Assembly (NCBI GenBank): GCA_951406725.2
Contig: OX597814.1
Coordinates: 216,256,001 to 216,320,000 of the forward strand
Length of the DNA stretch: 64,000 nt
DNA from: Octopus vulgaris
Taxonomy: Eukaryota
Reading direction: 5' to 3'
In this document: piece by piece, positions 16,186 through 53,856 of the stretch
Layout: each line of letters begins with the position of its first letter
How positions within the stretch are numbered: the stretch's first letter is position 1
Position numbers and translations under genes: made by a program
Notes under the pieces: generated by a model
The model's database searches: none
Told to the model about the DNA's origin: nothing
Seen by the model: only the letters and a program-made list of their open reading frames with translations

Positions 16186-17713
16186 TTGTTCTGGACGTTT
16201 GTAGAAGACGACATCAACTGGAAGGTGTGAAGTTAGATGTTCAACCATTGAGGGAACCATCAGAAGAAAATACCATTTCAAGACAGCAAGTCCATGACTA
16301 TTTACTACCTTCCAAGTTCCATCTGACTTTCTTAAAGAGACATAAAATCAAAGTTAATGACCAATTAAAGAAATGGGCTGAAGTAATATGGAAAGATTCC
16401 AAGTTTAATAAACTGAAATTAAAATATTCCAAAGAAAATTTTGAGGAAATTGAACAATGTTTGGAAGAGTTATTAAATTCCATTACTGTTGAAATCATTG
16501 ATGTTCCAACTGATATTTTTGAAGACATTGTTAGAACATTTAAAAGTGAAGATGATAAGAAATATTTTTATTTTGATATCCAAAATTCCCAAGTTCGTAT
16601 TTTGGGAATTAATAAAAGTAACATAATTGAAATGAAAAAGAGACTTTTGGATAATCTTAGAAGGATATGTGAGTATGATTTAAATATTCATGAAAGACGT
16701 ATTCTATCCGGTCTCAGATTTTTTGAGCAGGCAGAAAGACAAGCTGAAGATCTACAAGTCAGGATTCATGGTAACAAAGTTATTTTTGAAGGCCAGTATT
16801 CCGAATTAGCTACTTGTCTCAAGAATATGTATAAAATTCTTCAGTCAATTGTTAAATCTGAATTGTGTTTGCCTTTAAATACTGGAATGATCATAAATAA
16901 AAAACCAGTGAAAGAATATCTTGATGAAGAACTGAGAAACAAGAAATGTATTGGTTCATGGGAAACGGGTGATGGTGATTCAGTATTACTTTATGCAAGT
17001 GATAAAACACATCTTTCACTTTTGGAAGAAATTATGAAAGAAACTTTTGTCGCCAATACCCTGGATTTTGTAGACAAAATTAAGGATACTCCAAATTATG
17101 GAAAGTGGATGACATTTGTTGAAAGTCTAAAAGAAGAGTTTCCAGATTCCCATTTTATTGGAGAAAATTCTATTGTTGCTGTTGATGCTGTAGTTAATGA
17201 TATAAAAAGCAAATTTGATAACTTTAAGCAATCTTTAACTGATGAATCTTATATATCGATGACTCATGCACATTTCCTCTTTCTTAAAGAGTTCAAAGAA
17301 CAAGAAATCAATGACTTTGGTGCGAAAAATAAAATTAAGAATGTGTGTCTCAAAGATAATAAGTTACACCTGGAAGGAACACAAGAGCAAATTAAGAAAA
17401 TGGAAATATTTATAGAAAAATTTAAGAAAAGATATCAGCTTAAAAGATCGAACATTTAGATCTCAAGAAACCCAGAAAAGTGAAGAAGGAAAAAATTTCT
17501 TATGGGAAAAGCAGAAGAAATCTGAGAGTATAATATCATTAAATTCAGATTTAGAAAGTGAAACAGAAGAAATACTTAATTTTGTGTATAAGAACTGTGA
17601 AATAGTGTTGAGGGAATGTGACATCACGACTCTGGACACAGATGTTATTGTTAATGCTGCAAATGGTAGACTGGAACATATGGGAGGTGTTGCAGCAGCC
17701 ATTGTGCAGAAAG
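16186..17713 (+). CDS. PARP14-like: Exon A, copy 1, of a PARP14/9/15-like macrodomain gene (RRM tail, putative KH-repeat region, macrodomain N-terminus); +1 A at 17416-17420
   Basis: Acceptor cttttcctaattcag|, donor aag|gttggt. Length 1528 nt = 509 codons + 1. Removing one A restores an open frame ending IVLRECDITTLDTDVIVNAANGRLEHMGGVAAAIVQK. The KH/RRM assignment is inferred from PARP14 architecture. Confidence 0.85.
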
Positions 17714-18069
17714 GTTGGTAATACCATTTGTTACAGTTAATGTTTCTTTTTAGATCCAAGTGTGGTTGAGAAGCTAATTTCCTGATCACGTGGTTTCAGG
17801 TTCAATTCCACTCACAGCATTTTAGACAGGTGTCTTCTGTTATAGGTCAGTGGTTGGCCAAAGCCTTGAGAGTGGATTTCGTTGATAGAAACTGAAAGAA
17901 GCTCATCATGTATGTATGCATGAACATGTTAATTTTCTTTTAAAAAACCGTTACTTGTGCAAATGCATTTTCTTTTTATAATTATTATTTTAATCTTATT
18001 TGTGTGCATGTGTGTGTTAATATATTTGAAAAACAACATAACCATTAGATTTATATAGACAATGCTTTC

Positions 18070-21000
18070 AATACAGTTAGCGGTAAGTAAATTAATCTAT
18101 TCTTAAAATTTCATTATTACTAGTGAGAGTATGATATGCTAAGATGTTTATGTGTAGAAGTTAAAATTTGAAAAATTTTATCAATACAAAAATTGCAATG
18201 AGAATATCCAGTTTTATAGGATTTCGCATGTCTTATGATTTCCCACTTTAGGTTATGATTTTTATTATTGTCCTTTAATTCCCAAATAGACTTCTTTAGA
18301 CTAGTATAAGATAATTTACTTCTGTTTATAATTGTGCACTCATGGTTTGCAATATACATTTTTATGTAATTTTCCATAGATCCTATGTAAAAGTAGTTTT
18401 TACCCTCAGCTTCCACTTTACTTCAATATACCACATCTTTTTTATTTGTCAAAATTTTTAAACAAACAGTTATGCTTAAATTTGCAGTGACAATACATAT
18501 TTTTATTTGCTCTTATAGACTTGCAATCAGTATTATCATTGCTCAAAGCTTTAGTATTCTGGTTACAATAGGATACAACATTCATTGTTTCCCTTCACAT
18601 TTTAGAAGATTTCTTTTTTTGTATATTCACTATAATCAGAATTATTTTTGTTGTCAAGTAATGCATCATTACTAAATCTAACTGTACTATTATAGAAATT
18701 AGTTAACTGTTTATTGTTATGTGAAAATATAATCTGGGAAACCTTGGTTGGGACATAATATCCAACACTTCATTTCTTTAGAAAAGTGATTTGTAAATAG
18801 TTTATAAAGAGATTTAACTAAGTTACTCTTAATTTACTTGGCAAATGGAATAATTAACCAAATAATATTATGCTTATTATAAGTTTTATTATAATTATGT
18901 AACTGTTAATCAATTTTCTTTATATATGGGGTATGTCATTTAATAACATTTTTACTTTTATGAATATCGTTAGCGGAATTAAGCAATGAATCAGTTTTTA
19001 ATTTTCTGTCATTATCAATTATATTTAAATTATGCATATCACTGGAGTTTATGTTCGGTGCACAATATTTTATCTTCTGCTTATGTCCTGCCCTCCCAAG
19101 TGCCATGCTGTAAAAGTCCACATTTTAGTTGAAAATCTTCTCATTTGGCCATAAAGTTGAGATTCTTCTAGATACATTGTAAATCAAAGAATTTATGATA
19201 GATCTAGGATGATTACTTCCAATATTTGTATATCTAAGGTTTGTGTTAGATTTATGTAATGGGTTTGTGGTTGCCAGTAACGAGGTTAAGGTTAACATGT
19301 AAAAAGGTTACTGACGCATGCTTATTTTCGATAGTTATGGAGAGTCCAAAGTTTTTTTTAATCTATAAAATTCCTTCTTGTACATTTCTAATTTACTATT
19401 AGAAAAGTTTCTAGGAGTAAAAGTTGTATCATCCCCTTACAAACCTCCCCTAAATTCAGGAAAAATCTCTACTTAAATTAAATAGAATATATATACCTAC
19501 TAGATCAGTGACTTGTGCAAACTCCTCAGATCCCATTGTTATATGAAAGCCATCATTATTGACTTTTTCAATCCAATATTTGTTGTGAAATTCAATAACT
19601 ATTTTCCTGACAGTTAAACTTATGTTAATTTCTTCCATAGTTAGTTTAGAATATTTCTCACGAACAAAAGAGCCTTATTTAATAATATATGGTTAATAGA
19701 AGAATAATAATTATCTGTATGAATTTGTAAAAATTTCTTTCTTTTTTTATTGTCAATTCCATTAAACCAATCAGTTACTTTTTACGTATAGACCAAAGCT
19801 TTAATTTTATTGTGTTCTTAACTGCAGGTATATACCTATCTATAATGGCGTAGTTTAGCTTACCTAAGTCTGATTTACCTGGGCAAATTAATCTTACTTT
19901 AGGGTTGTCATAGAAATTCTCCTTATGGTTTTCTGGCATAATCCTAGGTTTCTTTGGAACAAAAGGTTTAGTCCTATCATCCAATTTGTAATCGGTCATT
20001 ATCTGTATAGATATTAGGTTAAAAGTTCTCAATATATTTTTATTAGCTATTCTGTAACTGCTAGTAATTTCCTTTTTTTAATAGTTCATGATAGTAATAT
20101 ATATTTCAGACTAGCAGTATTGCCCGGCGTTGCTTGGGTTTGCTTCAACCCTTTGGAATTGTAATTTTTGAAAATTAAAAATTTTGCATTGTAAATTTGA
20201 ATGAAGTTGGTTGTGTAGTTCTCAAGTTTTAGGGATTCACACAGACAGATAAGCCCGGTTTCACCCGATTTGTTTGAATGATGTGACTGTGATCGTTTTC
20301 GGTTAGGCATAATCTATAACAGCATTTCTCAACCTCATTTCGGGTCCCCTGTTTCGATTGGAGCCTCCAGCTGTATGAAAATTTCTCCCCAAGCCCCATT
20401 AAAAAACACCTTCAGGGGTTGTGAAGAAAGAATTTGTACATAGTCTGTTTCTGAGAGCTATTGTATTGGACCCCTGTCTAATCATTAAAACATTTATTTA
20501 ATTATGAACATAGAAAGAAATTACACATTAATCCCTATTTTTGTAAGTAGTTGTATCCATAAGAATTTTATTTGCAGATGGCAGAAATTGAAAGAAGATA
20601 TGTGAAATGGACATGTGGGTGTGTGTATATGTGTGTGCTTGTGGCGTGCATGCTTGCACGTATGTATGTGAGAGAGAAAGAGGGTGAGAGAGAGAGAGAG
20701 AGAGATAGAGTGAGTGAAGTGAAAATATCTTCGCAGAAAACAGCCTCAGGAGTTGTGAAGAAAGAATTTGTATGTAGTCTGTTTCTGAGAACTATTCTAT
20801 TAGACCTCTGTCTAATCATGTCTTTTAAGGTATACACACATACATAGAAAATGTGAGGTCATAGTAGAAAATTTTTACGATAGACATTGTTTAAATTTTT
20901 TTTGTCTAATGTAGAAGTTGGTGTTCTATGTATGTGTGTGTATGTGAGTGTGTGTATGTGTGTGTATGTGTGTGTGTGTGTGTGTGAGTGCTTTGTGTTG

Positions 21001-23786: not shown

Positions 23787-24035
23787 GTGGGTTTGGAATT
23801 CAAATTGAATCCAACAAAATTATGAAAGAAAGAAAGAGTGAACTGAAACCTGGAGAAGTAGTGTCAACTAAAGCTGGTAAACTCAAATGCAAGGCTATCA
23901 TTCATGCTGTTGGACCCATTTGGAATAATGGAAGGGATCAGGAAATGGATTACCTTTCAAGAGCTGTTCAAAATTGTTTGGCAGTTCTTGAAGAAAAGTC
24001 TTATACATCAATTGCAATTCCTGCCATCAGTACAG
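23787..24035 (+). CDS. PARP14-like: Exon B, copy 1: macrodomain core
   Basis: ttgcag|GT...ACAG|gtaag, 249 nt, phase 1-1. Encodes GGFGIQIESNKIMKERKSELKPGEVVSTKAGKLKCKAIIHAVGPIW...SIAIPAISTG. Confidence 0.92.
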
Positions 24036-25825: not shown

Positions 25826-28800
25826 ACCCTGGCTGTAACACACGGAACATGTACCTCAGGATGAAAAATAGCAACTAAGATATTTTTAAGATTTCGACTT
25901 GCTCCTCCTTTCATTGTTTTTTGCGAGTATTATCACCATAAAATATTATTTTCTCCTTCTTACTGTTGATGTCTTTCGTCTCAAACGCTAGCTCAAGCAT
26001 TTCCTCACAACATATACCTTTCACTCATAGAAACTTATTCACACGACCACAAAGCATTTCGTCTCAAATCTTGTCTTTCACCCTCATCTATCGGTCATCA
26101 CGCTGTCTATTCAATTCCTACACCATTTGCCTATCTATCGGTCTTTTCTGTCACTTAAATTCCTACCCCATCGTTCCCAGTTCGCGGTGCCACCCGCTCT
26201 CCCTCCCCCTCAACCCGTACCGGAAGTCCTTCTCTCATCTCGTCTTCCTTTAAGGCCTTAAGCCAATACCACCCCTACTATATAAGGTAGTGACCATACG
26301 GTGCAAAACATGATAGTGTAGTTTAAGCAGGTTGAACTTAAGATCATTGCTTTGCTTATGAATTCTGCCAAATGCGAGCTTTCTTTTCAGGTACATGACG
26401 TCACTGCTTCCCGTCCCAGGGTCTCTAGGGCCCATACCTCCCACACCCTCAGGGTTGGCACTCTCAACGTTGGCACACTGAAAGGTAGGTCTGGTGAGAT
26501 TGTTGAGATGCTTGAACGGAGACGTGTTGATATATGTTACATCCAAGAAGTAAGGTGGAGAGGAGGTTCTGCTAGGTTCCTCACAGGCAAAGATCACAGG
26601 TACAAGATCTTCTGGGCAGGAAACACTGACGGGGTTGGAGGCGTGGGTATACTTCTTGCTGAAAAAAGGGTAGATAAGGTAATTGAGGTAATCAGAGTAT
26701 GTGACAGAATACTTAAGATTAAAATAGTGCTTCATCATGGATTAGGAACCATTATATCAGCCTATGCCCCTCAGCCGGGGCCACCCGATGGACAGAAAGA
26801 CCGATTCTATGACGCCTTACTGCAGATTACCTCTTTCACGAACGACAGAGACCTTCTCTTTGTGGCTGGTGATTTCAATGGACATGTTGGAAAACATACT
26901 GGGGGCTTCCATGGTATACATGGAGGCTATGGCTATGGTTCCTGCAACAAGGAGGGAACCAGGCTCCTGGAGTTCTTCAAAGCAAATGATCTCATGGTTT
27001 GCAACACTAACTTCAGGAAACCTACCAGCCACCTAGTCACCTACCGATCGAGTCGACATACCAGCCAAATTGACTACATCCTTGCCAGGAAAAGGGAAAG
27101 ATGGCTGCTTATAAATGCCAAAACCTTCCCAGGCGAAGAATGTACCCCACAACATAGACTGGTAGTTAGTGACTTTAGGATCAGGACTAAGAGGACGACC
27201 AGAAGATGACCAACATGGAGAAGAAGGATCTGGAAGCTTAAAGATCCTGCAAATGGACAGAGATTTAGGGACATATTACTTCAAGCATTTGACAAAGTAG
27301 AAGGGGATATAGCTTCACATGGGGTAGAAGACAACTCGAGGATTCTAAGGGACAACCTGCTGACAGCCACTGACCAGATCTGTGGCTGGTGCAAAGTCCC
27401 CTCTCAACCTAAAATAATGTGGTAGTGGAACAATGTTGTAGACAGGGCTATTAGAGAAAAGAGACAGGCTTGGAAGGACTGGAAAAATGGGGGTAGCAGG
27501 GAATTGTATCAGACTGCCAAAAGAGAAGCTAGGAGACAGGTTTATTTAGCCAGAGGGGAAGCAGATAACAAAAAATTTGCCAATGTTCTGCGCATCGAGG
27601 ACCTAAGACTTGAGATATTTCACGTTGCAAGACAGTGTGTGAGAGAGAATCATGATGTGGTAGGAGAGAAATGTGTTCGCATGGATGATGGTTCACTTGC
27701 GCTAAATGAGGATGCAAAGAGAGGTTGGGAGACGCCACTATGAAAGGTTGCTGAATAAAGAAAATGAATGGGAAAAAGAGAGTCTGCCGAATGTCGACCC
27801 AACAGAGGGACCGGCTATCTGAGTTGACAGTTCCTTGGGAGTTAAGGCAATTAGAAGCATGAAGACAGGGAAAGCCCCCGGCCCATCAGGAATCACTGCA
27901 GAGATGCTCAAAATATCTGGTAGTGTCAGCTATAGCCTAGCCACCCGTATAGTTAACCAGGTGATACACGAAGGAGTCATACCCAATGACTGGTGTAGCA
28001 GCATAATTGTCAACTGCTACAAAGGTAAAGGTGACGCCCTAGATATAAATAATTACAGAGGTATCAAGCTGTTAGGTCAGGTAATGAAGGTTACGGAGAG
28101 GGTCATAGCCCAACTAATTAGAGATGAGATGCAGTTTGGATTCATGCCAGTGAAAAGCACCACTGATGCCATATTCCTGGTAAGACAGCTGCAGGAGAAA
28201 TACCTAGCCAAAGATAAGCCCCTGTACCTGGCTTTTGTTGACATGGAGAAAGCCTTCGACAGGGTCCCCCGATCCCTTATTTGGTGGTCAATGAGGAAAC
28301 TAGGGATAGATGAATGGTTAGTGAGAGCTGTGCAAGCCATGTACAGAGACGCTGCTAGTAAGGTGAGGGTTGGCAACGAATACAGTGAAGCATTCCAGGT
28401 AGAGATAGGGGTCCACCAAGGTTCAGTCCTCAGCCCCCTCCTATTTATCGTAGTCCTCCAGGCAATAACGGAGGAATTCAAGACAGGATGCCCCTGGGAG
28501 CTCCTCTATGCAGATGACCTTGCTCTAATTGCTGAGTCACTATCAGAACTGGAGGAAAAATTTCAGGTGTGGAAGCAAGGATTAGAATCGAAGAGCTTTA
28601 GAGTCAACCTAGCTAAAACCAAAGTCCTAATAAGTAGGAAGGTAGACAAGTCACAAACGCCTTCAGGTAGATGGCCTTGCTCGATCTGTAGGAAAGGCGT
28701 AGGTAGAAACTCTATAAGATGCACCAAGTGTAAGCTATGGACACATAAGAGGTGCAGCAACGTCAAGGGAAGGCTAACTAGGAAGATAGTTTTTGTATGT

Positions 28801-30020
28801 GGCAGATGCTCAGGAGCAATAAACACTGAAAATCTGCAGAAAACAACTTCCGTCACTTTCCAGGGAGAAAAACTAGAAATAGTTGATAGCTTCCGTTACC
28901 TAGGTGACCAAGTCAGTAGCGGGGGCGGGTGTGTTGAAAGTGTAACTGCTAGAGTAAGAATAGCCTGGGCAAATTTCAGAGAGCTCTTACCTCTGCTAGG
29001 GACAAAAGGCCTCTCGCTCAGAGTAAAAGGCAGACTGTATGATGCATGTGTACGAACAGCCAGTGAGTGAAACATGGGCCGTGTCTGTTGAGGATATGCG
29101 TAAGCTCGCAAGAAATGAAGCCAGTATGCTCCGATAGATGTGTAATGTCAGAGTTCATACTCGACAGAGTATAAGTACCTTGAGAGAGATGTTGGACCTA
29201 AGAAGCATCAGTTGTGGTGCGCAAGAGAGACGTTTGTGCTGGTATGGCCATGTGGCGAGAAAGGATGAAGATAGTTGTGTGAAAAAGTGTCACACCCTAG
29301 CTGTTGAGGGAACCTGTGGAAGAGGCAGACCCAGGGAAACCTGGGATGAGGTGGTGAAGCACGACCTTCGAACTTTAGGTCTCACTGAGGAAATGACTAG
29401 AGACCAATACCTTTGGAAGTATGCTGTGCATGAGAAGACCCGGCAGGACAAGTGAGACCATAACCCGGCCTCAGTCCACTTATGCATAACTTTCCTTCTT
29501 GGGACACAATACTCTACTTGTGAAGACCTGTTGAGGCAAGTGAAAATCAAAATCAAAATCAAAGATCAAAATCGATCAACATGAATGGAAATTGTAGGTG
29601 TGATACCAGTGCCGGTGGCACATAAGAGAACCATCCAAACGTGGCCGTTACCAGCGCTGCCCCGACTGGCTTCGGTGCCACATAAAAAGCACCATCCAAT
29701 CATGGCCATTGCCAGCCTCGCCTGGCCTCCATGCCGGTGGCACATAAAGAGCACCATTCAATTGTGGCCGTTTGCCAGCCTCGTCTGGCCTCTGTGCCGG
29801 TGGTACGTAAAGTGCACAATCCGATCGTGGCCGTTTGCCAGCCTCGTCTGGCATGTAAAAGCACCCACTACACTCATGGAGTGGTTGGCGTTAGGAAGGG
29901 CATCCAGCCGTAGAAACAGACTGGGCCTGGTGCAGCCTTCTGGCTTCCCAGACCCCAGTTGCACCGTCCAACCCATGCCAGCATGGAAAGCGGACGCTAA
30001 ACGATGATGATGATGATGAT
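25826..30020 (+). mobile_element. Near full-length RTE-clade LINE (APE + RT) with several stops and frameshifts, in intron B1-C1
   Basis: APE motifs TLNVGTL, QEVRW, SAYAPQ, GDFNGHVG and SQIDY; RT ORF 27835-29070; 3' UTR with (GAT)n tail. The 5' UTR is shared with 56613-57190. Confidence 0.93.
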
Positions 30021-30855: not shown

Positions 30856-31035
30856 GTATTTGTGGTATACCCATAGAAGAAGGAACCAAATGTACAGTAA
30901 CAGCTATAAAGGAATATCTTGATACTCACTCAAATTCTAAAATAAAACATATTTGTTTGATTGATGTACGGAAGGAAGTAATCAGAGCTTTTAAGCTTCA
31001 TCTAGAAACGGTGTTTGGAATCAGTAAAAGCAGAG
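30856..31035 (+). CDS. PARP14-like: Exon C, copy 1: macrodomain C-terminus
   Basis: ttattacag|GT...AGAG|gtagga, 180 nt, phase 1-1. Completes ISTG-ICGIP...IKHICLID...AFKLHLETVF. Confidence 0.9.
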
Positions 31036-31207: not shown

Positions 31208-34200
31208 TAAAGGTTCAACCCCTCCTCAAAGCGGTAGGGTGGTGTAAAAGAGCAGTGTCAGAGCTATGCCGTTGGGAACTTTGGTTCCTGGTTGATTGGT
31301 TTGGCACCAAGTGGTATTAGGGCTGCAGACTGGCAAACGGGACTCTGGTGAAAATTCCAAGAGGCGTCTGATTGGCAACTGGCGGCTTTGAGGTCGTTCG
31401 GTCCCTGCATCTGTGGAGACTCCACAGCAAACAACGCATCCCGTCTCTCAGGATATGCATGCAGGATATCGGGGACCACTTGTGAATTCAATATTCCCAT
31501 GAAACTTCTTCTATGAATCCTACTACTACCATGGCAATAAATACGAATACGAATTATCTACCTATGCAACCAATCAACAACCCTCAAACTGGTATGGCTC
31601 TTCAAACTACTCCTGGAGTAGTCCTGCTCTTTAAATGTAAGACAGAACTGAAGGTACCGTGCTGGAACATCAGAACCCTTCGCGACAACGGTGTCCAGTC
31701 GCTAACAATGAAGGCTTCGCACAAGTATTATGTGAATGTTGCTTGCCTTTCAGAGGTCCAACTCGCTGATGTTGGCCATCTTCCTATTAAGGTGCCGGGC
31801 GAGGATGTCAGTTATCACCTATGTCATAGTGGCGTGACCGACAACAGTGGTCTTCATAGGGTTGCTGTGGCGTTCAGCCCTGACGCGCAAGCGGCTCTGC
31901 TGGCATGGCAACCGATCTCACACTGACTTGCGCTGGTTCGATTGAGGTGTCAAATCGCCAATCTCGTGAGATTGCTGTCTACATGCCCACTCTCCATGCA
32001 GACGATGTAGACGAGGTGCAGTTCTATACTGATGTCCAGGCTGCCGTGGTTGGTGTCCCATCCAGTGATGTTCTCATTGTTGCTGGGGACTGGAATGCAC
32101 GAACAGGGCCGGCTGATGATACAATGTGACATATTCTGGGACGCCATGCTGCTGAGAATAGCCAATCAGATCGACTACATACTGGTTTAGGTCCGGCTCA
32201 GCTAGCTCAGTGGTGGACGCTCGTGCATATCGCGGGGATGATACGGGCAGCGAGCATGGGTCAGACCATACTCTTGTTTGGGCAACCCTTCGTGTGTGGA
32301 TGCAGGCAAAACCTCCTCCTAACCATAAGAAGAGAATTGACATCTTGCAACTCAAACTCAATGCTGGCAATGGTTTCCAGTTGGAGTTGTGGAGCGAATT
32401 CCAGTTGCTTGGTGACGTGGTGGAACAGCAGCTGGAGGAGGAGTGGCACACGTTCAAGGAGGTGAGGTGACAGTTGAGGTGGCCTGAAAACACCTCTGGC
32501 CTACTCGCCGCTGTCATAGGGACTGTATCTCCGGCGACACTCTTGAACTCATGGAGAGGGCTAGGGTGGCTCGGCATGAGGGGGCACCAAATCTGCGAGA
32601 TCTCCAACGTCAAGCCTCTCGGGCCATCTGGACCAATCGAAATGCAGACTGGCATGCATAACCAGGTTAGATGGAGAGAGCAGCCGCATGCGACCATGAA
32701 AGCTTTACAGACTAGAGAAGCAGACCAGCTGTAGCAATCTGGGTGTCAGTGAGACGATCCGTGATCGGAACAGTGTGGTCATTACCAACCTCAATGAATG
32801 GCTGCGCCACCTGCCTCCATCTACGACAACCGACGCGCAGCCGCCTGGAGAAGAGTACGGGTGCAACTCTGCCCCTTCAATCACTGAGGAGATGTGCGGT
32901 ATCCTGAAAAATCTCCAGAACAACAAGGCCCTTGGTGAGGACGGTGTCCCAGCCGAGATCTACTAGGCCAAGCCTGATGTCTTTGCAGCCTGGCTCCATC
33001 GTGTCTTCTGTGCTGTGTGGGTGATGGAGCGTTTTCCTGATGACTGGAGTGAGGCAACTCCTTTACCTTTCTTCAAAAAAGGTGATAGAAAGCTGCCTCC
33101 AACTATAGAGGCATCAGCTTGATTGATGTGGCTGCCAACATGTTTGCAATCCTTCTTCTGAAGAGGATCCAGGCCATCCGTAATGTCTGTACTCCTCCTT
33201 CTCAGGGTGGCTTCCATCGCAGGAGAGGGTGTGTTGATCAAATCTTCTGTCTCCGGCGAGTCCTGGGACAGTGGTGGGTGCACCAACAACCTACCGTTCT
33301 CTGGTTCATTGATTCTGCGGCTGCCTTCGACTCGGTGGATTGGGAAGCCCTCTGGCGTATTATGCAGGCGGATGTTATCTCTGTGAAGCTGCTAAATCTC
33401 ATACAGGGCTACTAACATTCAACGAGGGCTCGTGTGAGGGTCTATGGTGGGGTGACGGAGTCGTTTTATGTCACTACCAGTGTTCGACAGGGTTGTGCGC
33501 ACTCGCCATCGATTACATTCAATTACGCCATCGATTACATTCTCAACACTGTGCTTCGGGACTACCCAGGCATAGAGGCTGGGAGAGGAGTCGTGGTAAC
33601 GGACATGGCCTATGCAGATGACATTGCACTCTGGGGCACTAACCGGGCAGATGTCCAAGTTGCTCTCAAAAGGGTGCATGTATCAGCTGTTGGTCTTCGG
33701 ATCAATACTGGCAAAACCAAAGTGATGAGGTCTCTGGTCACAGCAGATGAATGGCAGCCAGTCGTTCTCAAGGGCATGGAGCTGGATGTGGATTCCTTCG
33801 TCTACCTGGGTTCAACGATGATTCCAACGGGCCAAATTCGAGCATCACATAGGAGCTGCCAGATCTGCATTCATGCACCTCCAGCGGTGCCTGTGGGACA
33901 GAAGAGAGATCTCCTTGGTGACCAAAGGGCGAATCTACCAGGCTGTTGTTCATACTGTCCTCCATTATGGTTGTGAAACATGGCCTATGAGGGCAGTCGA
34001 TCAGCAAAGGCTGGAGGTGCTCGACAGTGATTGTCTCCGTTGCATTCTTCACTACCGACACATTGATCGGTTTCCTACAGCCGGTCTTCGTCATCGCCTG
34101 ATTCTCCCACCCCTCCCTTCGGTGCATCTACAATGGCGATGAAGGTGATTCAGTCATGCGGCCCAGTCTCCAGAGAGTGAGCTGATTCACGATGTCTGCC

Positions 34201-34468
34201 TCCCACCACCACTACTCAGCTGGCACAAATGCATGGGCGGGCACGTGAAGACCTGGGCAACAACGTTAAAGGAGGACCTCTCTGAACTGTCAGGTACGCA
34301 GGTCAGGTGATTGGTCTGTGCAGATGGAACCATGAATGGCTCGCTATTTCCAGTGACCTCGCACAGGACTGTCAAGTATGGCCCGCCATGGTTCGTGATG
34401 CAGTTAGGACCAGAGAAGAAGCCGGCTCAACCCGCCCTGGGTGAATGCCGTCACAAGTACAAGTAAGT
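31208..34468 (+). mobile_element. GC-rich RTE-clade LINE of a second family, with 12-bp TSD; pseudogenised
   Basis: TSD atgttgaatccc at 31196-31207 and 34469-34480; (CAAGTA)n tail; motifs WNIRTL, AGDWNA, GSDH, KALGEDG, RQGC, MAYADD and YGCETW. The empty site in unit 2 is at ~54016-54030. Confidence 0.92.
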
Positions 34469-36268: not shown

Positions 36269-36315
<47 letters not shown>

Positions 36316-36689
36316 GTGTGTGTGTGTGTGTGTGCGTGTGTGTACTTGCATATATCATGGCCTCAGGCCAATGAAGCCTTGCGAGTGGATTTTGCACATG
36401 GAAACTGAAAGAAGACTGTCGTATAGATATGTATATTTGTGTGTATGTCTGTGTTTGTACCACCACCATTGCTTGAAAATTATGTTGCTGTGTTCAGGTC
36501 CCTGTAACTTAGCAGTTCGGCAAAAGACAGCAACAGAATAAGTACTATGCTTAGAAAGAATAAATCCTTGGGTCTGTTTGTTTGAATAAAGGTGGTGCTA
36601 CAGCATGGCCATTCACATGACTGAAACAAGTAAAACAGCAAAAACTATGCCATTTTAATCCCGAGCAATACCAAGTATCGCTGCTTGTA

Positions 36690-37640
36690 TGTTATAAAAA
36701 AACATTCCTTCAGCTTGTGACAGTGGATAGCCCTTGAGCTGGATTTTATTCTTGTCAAAATTCTTAGTCTTTGGGCAGAAACTAAATCCTAGCACCAAGA
36801 CAAGGACATCGTCTGGTGAAAGGTTTAGTTTAGATAAATTTATTCACTCGTATGATGGATTTTCTTGGGAGAGTGCTTTTCAGAGTTTCACTTTCATTAG
36901 ATCTGTGACTACTTTTTGGGTTTTGCTCAAATTCTTCACTTAAAATATGGAACCTATTCGGTGATAAAAATGGTTTAGAATGTTCATGTGAGGATCTCAT
37001 AACTTTTAGTCATCTTTCTAGGAGTAAACCATTTCTGGGTGGGTGATAGAAAATGAATGACTTCTGTGGTTTACGCAGGCAATTGAAAAGCCTTTCCTTT
37101 CGGGAAAGGAACAAATTTATTAAGAATATAAGATAAATATTAACCACTAGCTTTAACTCCAAGAATTCTTAACACTGGACTTTCTGAACATCATATCTTG
37201 AAAAACAGTCGCGAGAGAGTTAAGACCTGTTCATTGTGCAACAACATGAGTCAAGTGAATTCCATCAGGAATCATAACAGAAATGTTATGATTTATTCAG
37301 AAGGTGGGACATGTAGAGATCCAAATTTGGTGTACGTGGCAGAATGCATGAAACACAACTTAATTTATGTTGGTTGCACAACAGAACAATTAAACAAAAG
37401 ATTTAATGGGCACAGATATGATGTCAAGCATGATAAAAATTCAACAGAACTTGCTCAACATTTTGCATCAAATGGCTGCAATTTTCAAAAAAAAATTTGA
37501 AAGTGCATATTCTCAGAAAATATTCTGAATCTGCTACACTTTCAGTCCTCAAAATGCACAGGGACAGATATGTTTTGAGAATTATCAACATCTACACCAT
37601 GAAGGGATGAATAAAATGACAGAGGAATTTCATAATATTC
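36690..37640. mobile_element. Penelope-like fragments: N-terminal piece on the minus strand, GIY-YIG piece on the plus strand
   Basis: ORF 37198-37500 has CSLC...NLVYVAEC...IYVGCT...RFNGHRYD. The minus strand at ~36800 reads VLVLGFSFC. Confidence 0.7.
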
Positions 37641-38979
37641 ACACAAAACTGACTATATATTCTTCTCCTTTTTCTTTTTTCTCTTGTTGTTTTTCTTTCT
37701 TTTAGCCAGTTATACAATTGAAAATTGAAGACTGATGACATCATTTTGTCAAACTGGGAATGCAGGATCTCCTTGTTCCAACTTTTGAATTTGAATTTCT
37801 ACAATTTTTAAATTTCTATTCATCACGTTTTCATTAGAACTTGACAAAGAGAAGCAAACAGTTGAAATATTGATCAATCTAATAAAATCATCATCATTGT
37901 TTGACATCCATGTTCCATGCTAGAATGGTTGGGACGGTTTGACAGGAGCTGGCCAGGCACTTCTGTGTCTGTTTTGGCAGGATTTTTACAGCCTAATGCC
38001 CTTCCTAATATCAACCACTCAGCAGAGTGGACTTAGTGATTTGTACGTGGCACAAGCACAGGTGAGGTTAATTTTGGCAAGGTTTTTAAATCTGGGTGCC
38101 CTTCTGCACACCAACAACTTTACAGCATGGACTGGGTGCTTTTAAGCGGCACCTGCACTGACACGGACACTAGGTACTTGCAAGACAAAAAATACTTTCA
38201 AGAGGGGTGAGGGAATTGTAGGATATGATCTTGTGTCAGATGATGAAAGGTCAGAGAGAGAGAGAGAGAGCAAGAAAGAGAAATAGGGGTCTTGCTGTAA
38301 TGGAAGTACAAGGTTACTCCACCTGAGAAAGAGAGATTAGGGATGAGGAAAGAAACAGGCACATTACTGCAAAGGAAATACATGGTTACGCAACTTGAGA
38401 GAAATGAAGGAGAATGCGAGAGTGTGGGAGATAGCAGGATAGATATGGAGTAAAATGTCAGGGATACTCATAAGGAATGGGGATCAGAATATAGATGGGA
38501 TGGTTGAGTAAAGGAAGAGAGAGATACAGATAGTGGCAAGTGCCAGGGTATACCCTTGAGGTTCGACGCATTCTTCATTTTGTCTGATAATAATAATAAT
38601 AGTGTTGACCGGCCCAATGCTTGGGATGAAGGTGAATGAACTGCAAATCAGTACTTAATTCTGGAGCAATATTTTGATAAAGATACTGAACCAACTGATG
38701 CTCACGTGTCTCAAGAATCATGATCATGGTCCCCAATACACAGAGATACAAAGGGAACAGGCCCAACATATGTGTAATAATGTCTCTGCAGTCTTGGTTG
38801 ACAATCTTACTAGAGATGGTGTCTTGATAAAAAATACCAGTTGGTGGCTAATTTTAGAACACAAACCTCAATATTGAATGAAAATGCTTAATACAAGTGT
38901 ATCAAATAATGTGTCAATGAGTCTGGAACCAACAGTCCACTGATGTTGAGCAGTGTAGGATCAGTCATTACCCAGAGAC

Positions 38980-40614: not shown

Positions 40615-41030
40615 GCGGGCATGTCGGATGAAATGGCTAGCGGTATTTCATCCATCTTCACACTCAATGTTCAAATTCTGACAGGGATGACTATGTCTTT
40701 CATCCTCTTGCATTTGCAATGTGATCGATGTAATCTATTTAGCCACTCTCCTGAAATTGCTGGCCTTGTGCTAAAATTTGAAAACAAAATTTCAGTGATG
40801 TTTATGGTCAATAAAATAAGTACCTGTTGATCACTGGGGTTGATGTAATTGACTTAGCCACTCTCCTGAAATTGCAGGCCTTGTGCCAAAATTTGAAACC
40901 AAAATTCCAGTGATGTTTATGGTCAATAAAATAAGTACCAGTTGAGCACTGGGGTTGATGTAATTGACTTAGCCACTCTCCTGAAATTGCTGGCCTTGTG
41001 CCAAAATTTGAAACCAACATTCCATGATGT
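40615..41030 (+). repeat. SINE remnant (B-box-like gttcaaattc) followed by ~2.7 x 115-bp units
   Basis: Full units start at 40809 and 40924, with a partial unit from ~40724; same unit as 15388-15957. Confidence 0.85.
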
Positions 41031-41236
41031 TTCTAGTATTTATTATAATTAATAGAGATAGTGTCTACTTAGTGTCTGTGAAATGTTGGTTATATTTTTC
41101 TGTTTGCTAATGCATTATACTAATAACATTACTTTGTCTTCAAATACTTTTCTGTCTTTACCCACTAAACTCCCCATCTCACCCCTACTCCCTCACCAAC
41201 GAAATGATTTTGTCTTTTTACCTTTTCCTAATTCAG

Positions 41237-42773
41237 TTGTTCTGGACGTTTGTAGAAGACGACATCAACTGGAAGGTGTGAAGTCAGATGTTCAACCATT
41301 CTGGGAACCATCTGAAGAAAATACCATTTCAAGACAGCAAGTCCATGACTATTTACTACCTTCCAAGTTCCATCTGACTTTCTTAAAGAAACATAAAATC
41401 ATAGTTAATGACCAATTAAAGAAATGGGCTGAAGTAATATGGAAAGATTCCAAGTTTAATAAACTGAAATTAAGTTATTCTGAAGGAAATTTGAAGCAAA
41501 TTGAACAATGTTTGGAAGAGTTACTAAATTCCATTACTGTTGAAATCATTGATGTTCCAACCAATATTTTTGAAGATGTTGCTAGAACATTGAAAAGTGA
41601 AGATGATGAGATGTATTTTTATTTTGATATCCAATATCATAAAGTTCATATTTTTGGATTTGATAAAAGTAATGTAATTAAAATGAAAAACAGACTTTTG
41701 GATAATCTTAGAACGATATATGAGGATGATTTAAGTATTCATGGAAGGCGTATTCTATCTGGTCTCAGATTTTTTGAGCAGGCAGAAAGACAATCTGAAG
41801 ATCTACAAGTCAGGATTCATGGTAACAAAGTTATTTTTGAAGGCCAGTATTCCGAATTAGCTACTTGTCTCAAGAATATGTATAAAATTCTTCAGTCAAT
41901 TGTTAAATCTGAATTGTGTTTGCCTTTAAATACTGGAATGATCATAAATAAAAAAACCAGTGAAAGAATATCTTGATGAAGAACTGAGAAACAAGAAATG
42001 TATTGGTTCATGGGAAACGGGTGATGGTGATTCAGTATTACTTTATGCAAGTGATAAAACACATCTTTCACTTTTGGAAGAAATTATGAAAGAAACTTTT
42101 GTTGCCAACACACTGGATTTTGTAGACAAAATTAAGGATACTCCACATTATGGAAAGTGGCTGACATTTGTTGAAAGTCTAAAAGAAGAGTTTCCAGATT
42201 CCCATTTTATTGGAGAAAATTCTCTTGTTGCTGTTGATGCTGTAGTTAATGATATAAAAAGCAAAATTGATAACTTTAAGCAATCTTTAACTGATGAATC
42301 TTATATATCGATGACTCATGCACATTTCCTCTTTCTTAAAGAGTTCAAAGAACAAGAAATCAATGACTTTGGTGCAAAAAATAAAATTAAGAATGTGTGT
42401 CTCAAAGATAATAAGTTACACCTGAAAGGAACACGAGAGCAAATTAGGAAAAAGGAAATATTTATAGAAAATTTAAGAAAGGATACCAGATCCCAAGAAG
42501 AAAACTTTGAAATGTTTAGATTTCAAAAAACCCAGAAAAGTGAAGAAGGAAAGAGTTTCTTGAGTGAAATGCAGAAGGAATATGAGAGTATAATATCTTT
42601 AAATTCAGATTTAGAAAGTGAAACAGAAGAAATACTTAATTTTGTGTATAAGAACTGTGAAATAGTGTTGAGGGAAGGTGACATCACGACTCTGGACACA
42701 GATGCTATTGTTAATGCTACAAATGGCAGACTGAATCTTATGGAAGGAGTTGCAGCAGCCATTGTGCAGAAAG
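41237..42773 (+). CDS. PARP14-like: Exon A, copy 2, of the PARP14-like gene; +1 A at 41950-41956
   Basis: Same acceptor as copy 1, donor aag|gttagt. Length 1537 nt = 512 codons + 1. ORFs 41083 and 41960 join if one A is removed; the exon ends IVLREGDITTLDTDAIVNATNGRLNLMEGVAAAIVQK. Confidence 0.85.
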
Positions 42774-44344
42774 GTTAGTAATACCATTTTTTATAGTTAA
42801 TGTTTCTTTTTAGATCCAAGTGTGGTTGAGAAGCTAACTTCCTGATCACGTGGTTTCAGGTTCAATTCCACTCACAGCATTTTGGACAAGTGTCTTCTGT
42901 TATAGGTCAGTGGTTGGCCAAAGCCTTGGGAGTGGATTTCGTTGATAGAAACTGAAAGAAGCTCATCATTTATACATACATATATACTTTTTTATAAAAG
43001 GTGTATACAGCTCATTGGAGCACTTCTATTTCCAGTCCGTTGTATATCTTGAGTGTTGTTTGTCACTCAAGATATAACTTTATATTTTGTAATACATACA
43101 TATATATATGTGTGTGTGTGTGTGAGGGTGAGTAGCCAGGTGTTGACAGCACACGATGGTTGTAAATGAACATCACCATCACACAAGTGATGTTGTGTCA
43201 TTTCCAGTCCTCCATGAAAAACATGTCTGACCGTGGAGAAATATTCCCTCATTTGGAAACATGTGGCACTTGGCTACAGGAAGGACACCCAGCCATGGAC
43301 ACTAAATTATGGTGCACAGACACACACACACACACATATACATACACATGTACGTACCAACACGCATGAACACACACACACAGTATACATGCACACAATA
43401 GCTTTATATACATCCACTTGCTTGCACACACAGTTACATCGCATAGCCTTATACACACACACATAAACCAAAAGCATGGACATACATACACACATGCATA
43501 GATACTTATACACAGTAGTCTCATACACATGAGTGCTCACATACACGTGCCAAGTTCATAGTTGTCTCCATGTCACTCATACCTCAAGTCAGCTCTCATA
43601 GATGTCTCCCTTGGTTGCCAGAGCCACTGACACCTTCAGCAACCTCTTCCTCCTCCAATCATTTCAGCTTCTAGTGACACTCTCACACGGGTTTTTTTCT
43701 TTTCTCTCTCTCTTCTTCTATTCTTTCTGTCAAAGAGTAGGCTCAAAATGTTAAACACTTCCTAATTTCACTAAGCATAAAGTTGATACACTTCTGCTGT
43801 GGAGGTCAGGTCTTCTTGAGAACAGCAAGGCACCAGATATCTCAGTCCTTTGTCATCTCATCCACAAGGTTCACCGTTCGGAGGTTCTCCTTCAGAACTT
43901 CGTCCTCTGTTTTACTGGGTCTCCCTCTTACACAAGTTCCATCCACTTTGAATGTACGGCACTTCTTTGTTGAGCTGTCAGCAACCCTTCACATCACATG
44001 ACCAAACCATACTGTCTTCTCTCACAGACTGCATCCAATTCTTCTTCTGCCAAACTTCTCTCTCAATACACTAACAGTCTGTTGCATATATGTGTTTCTT
44101 TATTGGCCACACAAGGCTGAATACAGAAGGGACAAAATACAAAGTAGAGCTTTTCTTTTTGGAAGGAAGAAGAGAATAAACGAAAAAAAAGAAGTGGGTC
44201 GAATTCCAATCAAAAGGGTTTGTGAAGAAAAAAATTATATACATATACGTGTGTGTGTGTGTGTATACAAGTAAAATAGAATAAAAATGTAATATATATA
44301 TTGATATATATAACAAAATATATTTATAATAGAAAATAATAATA

Positions 44345-47113
44345 ATCATCGTTTAAGATCCGCATTCCATGCTAGCATGGGTTGGACAATTTGACTGAGG
44401 ACTGGCAAACCAAATGGCTGCACCAGGCTCCAATCTTCATCTTGCAGAGGTTCTACAGCTGGAACCCTTCCTAACGCCAACCGCTCTGAGAGTGTAGTGG
44501 GTGCTTTTATATGCCACCGACATGGAACTCAGTTAGATTCAGGTGGTACTGGCAACAGCCACGCTCAAATGGTGTTTGTTACGTGCCAATCCAGTGGCAC
44601 TCGCAACGACCTCACTCAAATGTTTTTTCACATGCCACCAGCACAAGTGCCACTAAGACGACACTGGTAACAATCAATGGTGCTTTTTATGTGCCACTGC
44701 CATGGAAGCCAGTTAGCTGCTCTGGCAATGATCACTCTCGGATGGTGCTCATAGTGCTCCACTAGCATAGATGCCAGTCATCAAATCTGATTTCGATTTC
44801 ACTTGCCTCAACAGGTCTTTGCAAGCAGAGTTTAGTGTCCGAAGAAGGAAAGGTACACATAAGTGGGCTGGTTACACCCCTGGCATAGGACGCAAAGTTA
44901 TGGTCTCATTTGGCTTGCTAGGTCTTCTCAAGCACACCATATTTCCAAAAATCTCAGTCACCAGTCATTGCCTCGGTGATGCCTAATGTTCGAAGGTCGT
45001 GCTTCACCACTTCGAACCAGGTCTTCCTGGGTCTACCTCTTCCACAGGTTCCCTCAACTGCTAGAGTGTGGCACTTTTTTCACACTGCTGTCCTCATCCA
45101 TTCTCGCCACATGACTATACCAGTACTGTCATCTCTCTTGCACCCCAATCTGATGCTTCTTAGGTCCAACTTTTTTCTCAAGGTACTTACACTCTGTCGA
45201 GTATGCACACTGACATTACACATTCAGCGGATCATACTGGCTTTATTCCTTGTGAGCCTACGCATATCGTGAGCAGTCATAGCCTATGTTTCACTGCCAA
45301 GTAGCATGGCTGTTGATACACATGCGTCATACAATCTACCTTTTACTCACCAGCAGAGGTAAGAGTTCTCTGAACTTTGCCCAGGCTATTCTTATTCTAG
45401 CAGCTACACTTTCAGTGCACCCCCACCCCCCAGCTTCTGAATTGGTCACCTAGGTAATGGAAGCTATCAACTACTTCTAGTTTTTCTCCCTGGAATGTGG
45501 CAGAAGTTCTTCTCTGCACATTTTCAGTGTTTATTGCTCCTGAGCATCTGCCACATACAAAAACTATCTTCCCAGTTAGCCTTCTTTCGATATTGTTGCA
45601 CCTTTTATGTGTCCATAGCTTATGCTGGGTACATCTTATAGAGTTTCTACCTACGCCATTTCTACAGATCGAGCAGGGCCATCTACCTGAAGGGATTTGT
45701 GGTTTGCCTGCCTCCCTACTTATTAGGACGTTGGTTTTAGCTAGGTTGACTGAGGCCCGTCGATTCTAATCCTTGTTTCCACACATGAAACTTCTCCTCA
45801 AATTCTGATACTGACTCAGCAATTAAAGCAAGGTCGTCAGCATAGAGGATCTCCCAGAGGCATCGTGCCTTGAATTTCTCTGTTATTTCCTGGAGGACTA
45901 TGATAAATAGGAGAGCCTGAGGACTAAACCTTGGTGGACCCCTACCTCCACCCAGAATCCTTCACTGTACTCATTGCCAACCCTCACCTTACTGACAGCG
46001 TCCTTGTACATGGCTTGCACAACTCTCACTAAGCATTCATTTATCCCTAGGTTACTCATTGACCACCAGATAAGGTGTCGGGGGACCCTGTCAAAGGCTT
46101 TCTCAACAAAAGCCAGGTACAGAGGTTTATCTTTGGCTAGGTATTTCTTCTGCAGCTGTCTTACCAGAAATATAGCATCAGTGGTGCTTTTCCCTGGCAT
46201 GAACCCAAACTGCATCTCATCTAAACTGATTTTCTCTCTAATTAGTTGGGCTATTACCCTCTCCATGACCTTCATTACCTGATCGAACAGCTTGATACCT
46301 CTGTAATTATTTGTGTCTAAAGCGTCACCTTTACCTTTGTAGCAGTTGACTATGGTACTGCAACACTAGTAATTGGGTATGACTCCTTTGTGTATCACCT
46401 AGGTAACTATAAGTGTGACTAGGCCATAGCCGACACTGCCAGATATTTTGAGCATCTCTGCAGTGATTCCTGATGGGCCAGTGGCTTTCCCGGTCTTCAT
46501 ACTCTTAATTGCTTTATCTACCAAGGTACTGTCAACTCGGATAGCTGGTCGCTCTATGAGGTCAACATTCAGCAGACCCTCTTTCTCCCATTCATTTTCT
46601 TTATTCAGCAACCTTTCATTGTGGCATCTACAAATCTCTCTCTTTGCAGCCTCATTTAGTGCAAGTGAACCATCATCCATGCGAACACATTTCTCTCCTA
46701 CATCACGATTCTCTCTCACACACTGTCTTGCAACATGAAATACCTCAAGTCTTTGATCCTCACGGCGCAGAACATTGGCAAATTTTTCCTTATCTGCTTC
46801 CCTTCTGACTAAATAAACCTGCCTCCTAGCTTCCCTTCTGGGAGTCTGATACACTTCCCTGCTACCACCGTTCTTCCAGTCTTTCCAAGCCTGTTTCTTT
46901 TCTCTAATAGCCCTGTCAACAACATTGTTCCACCACCATGTTATTTTGGGTCAAGAGGGGACTTTGCAACATCCACAGATCTGGTCAGTGGCCCTCAGCA
47001 ATTTGTCCTGTAGAAACCTCCAGTTGTCTTCTACAACGTGTGGGGCTATATCCCCTTCTATTTTGTCAAAGGCTTTGAGTAATATGTCTCAAAATCTCTG
47101 TCCATTCGCAAAC
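44345..47113 (-). mobile_element. RTE-clade LINE, 5'-truncated and degenerate, antisense in intron A2-B2
   Basis: Minus ORFs 46399-46854 and 45898-46275 match the RT of 2300-5329; the 3' UTR ends near 44345. Confidence 0.9.
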
Positions 47114-47666: not shown

Positions 47667-47915
47667 GTGGGTTTGGAATTCAAGCTGAATGTAACAGAAT
47701 TATGAAAGAAAGAAAGAGTGAACTGACACCTGGAGAAGTAGTGTCAACTAAAGCTGGTAAACTCAAATGCAAGGCTATCCTTCATGTTGTTGGACCTGTT
47801 TGGAATGATGGACAAACTGAGGAAATTTTTCACCTTTCAAGAGCTGTTCGAAATTGTTTGGCAGGTCTTGAAGAAAAGTCTTATACATCAATTGCAATTC
47901 CTGCCATCAGTACAG
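47667..47915 (+). CDS. PARP14-like: Exon B, copy 2: macrodomain core
   Basis: ttgcag|GT...ACAG|gtaag, 249 nt. Encodes GGFGIQAECNRIMKERKSELTPGEVVSTKAGKLKCKAILHVVGPVW...SIAIPAISTG. Confidence 0.92.
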
Positions 47916-48828: not shown

Positions 48829-48888
48829 ACTACTAGATGTCTCCTACTGAAGAATCCAGGCAGGATGAAATCATGTCATCTGGCAGTA
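48829..48888 (+). ncRNA. Candidate type I hammerhead ribozyme motif
   Basis: CTGAAGA (48847)-atcc/aggca/ggat-GAAA-tcatg-TC; the flanks actactagat and atctggcagt can pair. Stem III is imperfect. Confidence 0.45.
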
Positions 48889-49780: not shown

Positions 49781-50070
49781 ACAATCACACCTTAAGCTTC
49801 AGACACTGGGATAAAAAGAAAGCAACCAAATAATCCAGTTATATATGGCCCTTAAAAGAAAAAGGTGTCAGTTAGAAAATCCACTGGAAGATCTTGGCCA
49901 AATGTAAGCCTTACACTAACGGCAGTGGAAAGTGCAGTCTTTGCGATATGGAAAGATGGCTTGTCTGGAAAAGTTCTTTAGACCCTACTACATGTCTAAA
50001 TTCAAGAACTGAACTTTTTGGGTCATGTCCAAATATAGCGAAACATTTGTTATGTTTTTGCCCCCCGTCT
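49781..50070 (+). mobile_element. 3' GIY-YIG fragment of the same PLE family as 2-670
   Basis: AKCKPYTNGSGKCSLCDMERWLVWKSSLDPTTCLNSRTELFGSCP is nearly identical to ORF 233-670. Confidence 0.85.
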
Positions 50071-50263
50071 CCCCAGATCACAGATAAATCCTGTTTTTTA
50101 TATTATGTCCACATGCAAGCGTTTCATGTCTTGCCATTTCTTATATTTTTCTTATATATATTTTATTGCTTTATATATTTTTTCTGTATATTATTTTTCA
50201 CTCTTTATATTGGAATAATATGTGTGTGTATGCATATTTTATATGTATTTATGTTAACATAAG

Positions 50264-50300
<37 letters not shown>

Positions 50301-50334
50301 TTGTATGTATATGTACACGCGTGTGTGAGTATGT

Positions 50335-52760: not shown

Positions 52761-52804
<44 letters not shown>

Positions 52805-52992
52805 GTGTGCATATGCAGATTCTGAGAAAAAAGTTTTACTTTCCCTATGCTTATTAGAGTAATTTTCCTTTCTTCAACAGTTTTTTTCATAGCATTTTTG
52901 TTTTGTCTTAATAACTGATGAGATACCAGAGCAGATTTAAGCCCTGACATCCAGAACTCTGAGTTTTATTATGACAACCAACTAATTGTTAC

Positions 52993-53051
<59 letters not shown>

Positions 53052-53296
53052 GTGGGTGGGTGTATGTGTGACTGTGTTAGTACCTGTTTGTCTTTTAATC
53101 ACATGATATTTGTAAACAATGATCACCATCATACAAGCAGTGTCATCCATTTGCAGTCTGCAATGAAAACATGTCTGGCTATGGGGATATATTAGCTTCC
53201 TTGGTGTGGGGGTGGGTGATAGGAATGTCACCTAGACATACAAAAATTTGCCTCAACCAATTCCACCTGAAACATGGAAAAGGAAATGTTAAAACG

Positions 53297-53349
<53 letters not shown>

Positions 53350-53676
53350 CATCATGATTATTATTATTTTACTGAACAAACAAGAAAGAAAAGAAATGTG
53401 TTCAACAAGAGAGAAACAAAGTTCTTCTTAAATACCATTGTATATTAATGCGGGCTAAAGACCACCACCTCCACCCCACCTCGGTCATGAAATGCCATGG
53501 TATTGCACCTAGAAATTTGCCCCCTGTCTATTAAAGAATCTTCTAAATGATGGAATTGTATTGTTTCTTGGCATTGCAGCTGATAAATTACTGAAATTAT
53601 ATCACAGGTTAATTATATATATTTTGAGTAAGAACAATTGTTGGATTAAATATGTTGTATACTTTATTTATTACAG

Positions 53677-53856
53677 GTACTTTTGGTATACCCATAGAAA
53701 AGGGAACCGAATGTATAGTAACAACTATAAAGATTTATCTTGATGCTTACTCAAATTCTAAAATAAAACATATTTGTTTGATTGATGAACAGAAGGATGT
53801 AATCAGAGCTTTTAGGCATCATCTAGAAACGGTGTTTGGAATCAGTAAAAGCAGAG
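53677..53856 (+). CDS. PARP14-like: Exon C, copy 2: macrodomain C-terminus
   Basis: ttattacag|GT...AGAG|gtagga, 180 nt. Completes ISTG-TFGIP...IKHICLID...AFRHHLETVF. Confidence 0.9.

Follow-up and report, generated by a model that had tools for sequence, protein, structure and literature searches.

The window analysed here is a stretch of 64,000 nucleotides of Octopus vulgaris DNA (contig OX597814.1, positions 216256001-216320000), and it was read together with the flanking 100 kb on each side (264 kb in total). It lies within a gene whose nearest database proteins are labelled PARP14-like and are from Octopus vulgaris. In the window and its flanks the whole gene has 25 exons, every one with canonical splice sites, in the order ATG exon, two RRM exons, three successive A-B-C units, two four-exon macrodomain modules (D-E-F-L) and five 3' exons. 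It extends from the ATG exon at -21574 to the end of the ADP-ribosyltransferase (ART) domain at 125742 (extended window coordinates), and a single ATG exon and a single ART end were detected across the 264 kb. The original prediction had described two copies of A-B-C in the window. Our check of the six window exons bears out their coordinates, their AG/GT borders and the entry and exit of each in phase 1; both copies are real, but they are not the whole array, as a third unit, A3-B3-C3, sits just past the window. The exons of the three units are:

16186-17713, plus strand: exon A1 (1528 nt, phase 1-1), containing the RRM3 tail, KH-like domains 1-6 and the start of macrodomain 1.
23787-24035, plus strand: exon B1, the middle of macrodomain 1 (Pfam Macro, E 2e-20).
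30856-31035, plus strand: exon C1, the end of macrodomain 1, with GICG as loop 2.
41237-42773, plus strand: exon A2 (1537 nt), with the macro loop NATN..LMEG and a putative conversion tract in the first ~170 nt.
47667-47915, plus strand: exon B2 of unit 2, the middle of macrodomain 1.
53677-53856, plus strand: exon C2 of unit 2, the end of macrodomain 1, with GTFG as loop 2.
66135-67673, 71708-71956 and 83135-83314 (extended window coordinates): exons A3, B3 and C3 of the third unit, beyond the window.

The identity between units 1 and 2 is far above chance (93.6% in A, 90.8% in B and 90.6% in C). The two most similar units are 2 and 3 (97.3%, 97.6% and 98.3%, respectively), with B2 and B3 identical at 243 of 249 positions, C2 and C3 at 177 of 180, and 622 of 652 residues shared. 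The introns of these two units are 94.5-96.7% alike, with large insertion differences. In agreement with the earlier description of the C1-A2 interval as holding transposable elements and no other exon of the gene, a tblastn search with 15 PARP14-like proteins found no start, RRM, second-macrodomain, WWE or ART exon there. The public annotation divides the locus into two gene models, CAI9716760.1 and CAI9716761.1, at a frameshift in A2 that is described below. Both models are predictions, and they already connect C1 to A2 and C2 to A3.

The vertebrate Pfam domains KH1-KH6 align end to end with exon A, whose first 30 codons also overlap with RRM3. Exon A had been said to begin mid-domain and this is the case: RRM3 ends within it, with the final helix, hairpin and strand of that domain at its start. 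The internal modules thus open with an orphan RRM3 tail, which would presumably serve as a linker. In an AlphaFold model of the A3 region there are six KH-like units with beta-alpha-alpha-beta-beta-alpha order (pLDDT 85.8). The best VIA structural matches of this KH model are KH domains (Z 9.1 at 4.2 Å with 75 aligned, and Z 9.0 at 1.7 Å with 64 aligned), Foldseek returned no match for it at E 0.001 or below, and Pfam by itself scarcely detects the KH units in these exons. The KH region of unit 1 has no GxxG motif. The end of exon A together with exons B and C makes up macrodomain 1, as in the original prediction of a macrodomain pocket built from three exons. Macrodomain 1 superposes on that of human PARP14 (TM 0.94, 1.3 Å) and matches PDB 3Q6Z by sequence (E 6.7e-29). 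The profile and structure comparisons that the original prediction had proposed recovered Pfam Macro on the B exons, KH-like folds and the macro-1 superposition. According to the available part of PMC11080071, PARP14 and DTX3L use their KH-like domains for contacts with proteins, which hints at what extra KH arrays could contribute.

Outside the A-B-C units the organisation is that of a PARP14. An N-terminal RRM is supported by the two upstream RRM exons and by Pfam RRM_PARP14_3 on model P0001 (E 1.2e-13), and the two D-E-F-L modules follow downstream of macrodomain 1. The C-terminal ART domain is recognised by Pfam PARP on the close paralog model P0004 (E 1.8e-17), and PARP14/15 ART chains are the best PDB matches for the C-terminal domain of P0002. 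Exons I-K are open and carry HGT and YFA motifs; we take the ART triad to be H-Y-I, that is, of the mono-ART type. Exons G-H are at the position expected for WWE and KH7-8 and weakly match that region of mollusc PARP14, and Pfam WWE had no match on 15 octopus proteins. Of the flanking exons envisaged with the original prediction, the upstream RRM exons, the downstream ART exons and a further unit are present, with exons G-H as candidates for WWE. Where the canonical protein has a single KH1-6 plus macro-1 block, three blocks are present here.

The gene belongs to a large family of close paralogs. A genome search with Pfam PARP missed these genes and searches with exon DNA were used instead; the resulting copy counts are lower bounds. 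On this contig there are at least 23 copies of exon A, at least 16 of exon C, at least 16 of the RRM3 exon and at least 17 of the last ART exon, which indicates at least 16-17 recent PARP14-like loci on one chromosome, clustered at 5.3-9.5 Mb, 206-207 Mb and 215.8-216.6 Mb. The exon-A copies across these clusters are 86-100% alike, and public models render the loci as fragments or fusions. Other multi-module paralogs are:

215816585-215966024 (same contig), minus strand: paralog X, with two A-B-C units.
Ending near 216636357: paralog Z, with three A and B exons, which breaks off after the third B, by an assembly gap.
5.36-5.52 Mb: paralog V, with two A-B-C units, 211 Mb from this gene and with 89-90% identity.

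X is an inverted near-twin of this gene that is open throughout, both modules and all downstream exons included, except for a lesion in exon R2, and it is the most promising source of an intact multi-module product. Upstream of the window (216234426-216239245) a first exon of four codons, MAEK, joins a shortened R2 exon, and the same is seen in X. An RRM1 exon was not found in the 100 kb upstream of the window, and Z does have one; no 3' exons of Z were found from B3 to 216.80 Mb, a search that crossed one assembly gap. The number of D-E-F-L repeats also varies, with two here, two in X, three in V and five in the O. sinensis model P0016. The KH-region profile matches 126 of the 143 proteins compared. 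A double KH copy with separate blocks occurs in both models of this locus, in two from Mercenaria and in one from Pomacea that is probably a fusion, and a search of proteins of 1783-5000 aa found no octopus models with two KH blocks. We did not count P0017 as a module repeat, since its two PARP stretches look like two fused gene models, nor P0048 and P0067, in which partial matches overlap. Two exon-A copies 373 kb apart (8755325-8756821 and 8382233-8383729 of the contig) are 100% identical over 1497 nt, and represent either a very recent duplication or a false assembly duplication. We found no account of an octopus PARP14 expansion or of a KH-macro1 repeat in the literature, most subscription journals being outside the search, and a term search of the available portion of a preprint on DTX3L-PARP9 evolution (10.64898/2026.04.23.720386) found no mention of molluscs.

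The ADP-ribose pockets differ between units. Unit 1 keeps NAAN and HMGG and has GICG as loop 2, with Phe or Tyr in place of this Cys in the other 14 intact C exons. Units 2 and 3 have NATN..LMEG, with GTFG as loop 2. Among the paralogous modules, Z3 also has NATN..LMEG, Z2 has HMGD, and X1 and X2 retain HMGG. The Glu of units 2 and 3 aligns to the first glycine of the human HYGG loop, the second glycine of which we assume to be G832; residue numbering of the macro-1 loop was not found in the papers searched for it. The substitution G832E in this loop of human PARP14 abolishes both binding and hydrolysis, as far as the accessible text of PMC10499325 describes it. From their sequences, units 2 and 3 are likely to be poor at ADP-ribose binding or hydrolysis.

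The introns between the modules contain a record of how these were duplicated. The relevant features are:

31209-34468, plus strand: insertion resembling a long interspersed nuclear element (LINE), with open reading frame fragments, ~175 nt after exon C1.
36286-37665, unstranded: 1.4-kb block, found at full length in C-to-A junction introns only.
15388-15957, unstranded: 115-bp minisatellite, five copies, just upstream of exon A1.
40727-41032, unstranded: 115-bp minisatellite upstream of exon A2.
54031-56606, unstranded: inferred crossover zone, which starts as a C-to-D type intron without the LINE and is then of the junction type toward A3.

The LINE-like insertion is found at the same position after five of the six non-terminal C exons (C1 here, X1, Z1, Z2 and V1) and after none of the ten other C exons. 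The 1.4-kb block is carried by both junctions of this gene and by one each of X, Z and V. That the insertion and the block are shared, V included, at 89-90% identity suggests that the module was duplicated once, before the genes split. In a tree of exon A, V1 groups with V2. We rejected an independent duplication in V because V carries the junction-specific insertion and block, and the most plausible cause of its grouping is homogenisation at a later time. The sole junction intron of X recurs as a copy in both junctions of this gene; the second copy changes from terminal to junction type within ~2.7 kb, which matches the prediction of unequal crossing-over. Of the first 29 informative sites of exon A2 (to ~+170), 27 agree with unit 1, and most of the later ones agree with unit 3, a pattern that we interpret from these sites as a conversion tract, suggesting that gene conversion has mixed the units. 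Arrays of the 115-bp unit precede exon A in all four multi-module genes and could favour unequal exchange between modules. The minisatellite is ~200 nt upstream of exon A, with 2-5 copies here and arrays of more than 12 kb in Z.

The assembled gene has three lesions, two +1 homopolymer frameshifts and one stop. The frameshifts were located by a comparison of 23 exon-A copies, 21 of which cover the first site and 23 the second:

17416-17420, plus strand: run of five A residues (A5) giving a +1 frameshift in A1; the other 20 copies covering the site have A4.
41950-41956, plus strand: run of seven A residues (A7) giving a +1 frameshift in A2; the other 22 copies have A6 or shorter.

Each extra base is private to its own copy among those compared. 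The original prediction had corrected both homopolymers, and the bases that it removed are real +1 bases in the assembly. The stop is in exon D1, the first after C3, where there is a TAA (at 216342913 of the contig) in place of the TCA of paralog X; it could be avoided in frame by skipping the 648-nt D1-E1-F1-L1 module. Transcript data consisted of contigs from four runs presumed to be RNA, from three studies. Contigs of all four runs bridge a B-to-C joint with GT..AG ends, with B1 joined to a C exon, and in all four there is a contig without the extra base over 41950, although these contigs may derive from paralogs.

Reading frames in the family appear to be protected. The ratio of nonsynonymous to synonymous substitution rates (dN/dS) for whole modules is 1.05 between units 1 and 2, 1.16 between units 1 and 3 and 0.68 between units 2 and 3, and none of these values is significant. 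Gene conversion would inflate a site-model test of these sequences. Observed nonsense changes were set against expectation in a sample of 20 exon-A copies, from which two truncated ones and an identical one had been removed. Among 596 changes there are 2 nonsense changes, compared with 31.9 expected. None of the 129 changes private to multi-module genes is nonsense (6.9 expected, P ~0.001), nor is any of the 65 that are confined to modules other than the first (3.5 expected, P 0.03). The remaining indels in full-length exon-A copies all preserve the frame. Protected frames together with free amino-acid change fit a translated, fast-evolving family, to which pattern conversion could contribute. 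In vertebrates the macro-PARPs are under positive selection and turnover, with frequent birth and loss of PARP14/15 (available text of PMC4038475), and macro-PARP clusters are described from lancelet and sponge in the part of PMC13224862 at hand.

We consider it somewhat probable that this is one PARP14-like gene with three tandem copies of the KH1-6 plus macro-1 block, which are spliced serially, from each C to the next A, into one long protein where the frame is intact. This corresponds to one of the two options of the original prediction, a long protein with repeated KH region-macro modules, and it fits the single N-terminus, the three modules and the single ART end. The ancestral block would have been duplicated once, ~10% sequence divergence ago, and its symmetric phase 1-1 ends would have made the duplication tolerable. 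Unit 3 would have arisen from unequal crossing-over in the intron after C2, so that a block kept in four paralogs was extended to three copies here, and gene conversion would go on reshuffling the units. Without the two extra bases the exons total 8739 nt, and if the lesions were absent the protein would be a multi-module ADP-ribosyltransferase of ~2,900 aa, in which the extra KH arrays may supply a scaffold or RNA-contact surface and the macro-1 copies may vary in activity. Diversity is likely to arise at the DNA level rather than by splice choice, as in other fast-evolving antiviral PARP14 expansions. We regard the octopus locus as a new architectural variant in a birth-and-death expansion of PARP14.

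A number of observations weigh against a serially spliced product. The assembled frame terminates at codon 565, and beyond it lie the second frameshift and the stop in D1. Each of the four multi-module genes is interrupted somewhere in this assembly: besides the present gene, X has lost 1 nt in R2, Z has a truncated A1 and a frameshifted R3, and V has a frameshifted C1. Two KH blocks were found in none of five O. sinensis and neither of two O. bimaculoides models examined. The B-to-C contigs may come from paralogs and the runs are only presumed to be RNA, and a C-to-A joint is absent among the 15 joints displayed, an uninformative absence as 288 more were masked by transposon joints. A dN/dS of ~1 alone is indistinguishable from neutral drift, conversion from intact copies can also mask stops, and the 20 changes private to this gene, none of them nonsense (P 0.33), are uninformative. 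These points lead to the explanation that this is a decaying or truncated paralog, in which the lesions are true mutations, no full-length protein is made and paralogs such as X are the source of whatever multi-module product there may be. We think this the less likely course of events, but it deserves serious consideration. Three independent lesions in one gene, a TCA to TAA substitution that is atypical of homopolymer error, broken neighbours in the same cluster, dN/dS near 1 and the frequent birth and loss of vertebrate PARP14/15 (PMC4038475, in the text available) all speak for decay. However, both frameshifts are a single extra A in a run of A, in each of the four runs a contig over 41950 is without that base, even if possibly paralogous, every one of the 25 exons retains its splice sites, and the D1 stop could be skipped.

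The remaining explanations differ from serial splicing in how the three units are used or whether all of them exist. As its other option, the original prediction proposed alternative cassettes, in which one A, B and C are chosen or modules are skipped, giving chimeric pockets or a macro-1 switch in the manner of a small Dscam. All exons are phase 1-1, so skips of single exons or whole modules keep the frame, and they would avoid the frameshifted A1 and A2. The pockets of unit 1 and units 2-3 differ, and among database models of relatives P0010 and P0016 are without B-C and P0077 is without the macro-2/3 modules, which suggests that exon skipping or loss happens in the family. In arthropod Dscam1, there are mutually exclusive arrays with many variants of one exon type, of which one is picked. 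The octopus gene resembles it as an invertebrate gene, probably of immune function, in which exons have been duplicated in frame, but here whole modules alternate (A-B-C-A-B-C-A-B-C) rather than exons of the same type being clustered, there are three copies and no demonstrated exclusion. Ordered single-module choices of A, B and C give at most 10 combinations, units 2 and 3 are 97-98% alike with B2/B3 and C2/C3 almost identical, and the near-identical splice sites of the units contain nothing that would impose exclusion. Phase symmetry is already required to explain the survival of the duplication, no cross-unit joint was seen among the 15 joints displayed (288 more being masked by transposon joints), and the module mixing that is visible occurs in DNA, via gene conversion. 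Mixing of the Dscam kind is thus not borne out, and we think it quite unlikely. A C-to-A junction peptide had no match among proteins of 69-223 aa, not even to ordinary octopus fragments, and this search is hence uninformative. It is highly improbable that unit 3 (or 2) is an assembly artefact, in which a 2.5-kb repeat common to the C-to-A and C-to-D introns would have led to two haplotypes of a two-module gene being joined in tandem. In its favour, no pair of units is closer than 2 and 3, the switch falls within the shared repeat and two other exon-A copies in the assembly are 100% identical. However, the introns of units 2 and 3 are no more than 94.5-96.7% alike, with large insertion differences, Z also has three units, and a two-module ancestor stands even if the artefact is true. 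From the two public models of the locus one might conclude that each unit is a gene by itself, in tandem with the others, and that its first exon has been overlooked. We give this almost no credence, as there is no start, RRM or 3' exon between the units, one ATG and one ART end in 264 kb, a split between models that coincides with the A2 frameshift, and a C-to-A joint crossed by both models.

A bolder elaboration of the serially spliced protein, which we hold to be unlikely, is that the serial KH-macro1 units have differently tuned pockets (active, dead or decoy) and that cassette splicing sets the ratio of eraser to writer, giving an intracellular immune effector repertoire driven by splicing and conversion.

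Human PARP14 consists of three RRM, eight KH and three macrodomains, a WWE and an ART domain, as given in the available parts of PMC13224862 and PMC10499325. The octopus gene has the same domain order, the KH1-KH6 match to exon A, the macro 1 fold and an ART domain that best matches PARP14/15. It differs in having KH1-6 plus macro 1 three times, with the orphan RRM3 tail in the internal copies, in the replacement by Glu of the first HxGG-loop glycine in units 2-3, in having no RRM1 exon in the 100 kb upstream, and in belonging to a set of at least 16-17 recent paralogs that share one chromosome. Duplications of PARP14/PARP15 in vertebrates, lancelet and sponge resemble it in their clustered and partial duplicates, rapid change and loss; as far as the portions of PMC4038475 and PMC13224862 consulted describe them, these concern a whole or 3'-partial gene, whereas the octopus has an internal KH-macro1 repeat in several paralogs. 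The Mercenaria mercenaria models P0022 and P0043 also have the KH block plus macro 1 twice per protein model. In these database predictions, however, the repeat is of ~893 aa with RRMs included and only 40-55% identity between copies, and to judge from this divergence it is probably older, with other boundaries and an origin separate from that of the octopus repeat. The octopus macro-2/3 multiplications (five in P0016, three in V) are from the same family and arose by the same tandem in-frame phase 1-1 mechanism, but they repeat a reader-type macrodomain of 216-225 aa, whereas the unit repeated here is 655 aa, KH1-6 plus a hydrolase-type macro 1. PARP14 is a writer as well as an eraser of ADP-ribose, and one of the targets in the conflict between viruses and their hosts. 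A multiplied eraser and KH block with altered pockets in some copies provides a natural series for the roles of macro 1 and of the KH array, which is poorly understood, and for the evolution of writer and eraser. If the lesions are real, the locus is a clear example of turnover in an immune gene cluster.

Other repeats were found in the introns. LINE-like copies at 27248-30017 and 44336-47110 are 80% alike over 2.8 kb and inverted around C1 and A2. Their pairing could loop out these two exons, but the element is very abundant. Open frames at 206-667, 11534-13605 and 37144-37497, also intronic, resemble a reverse transcriptase and a GIY-YIG-like endonuclease, and presumably belong to Penelope-type retroelements.

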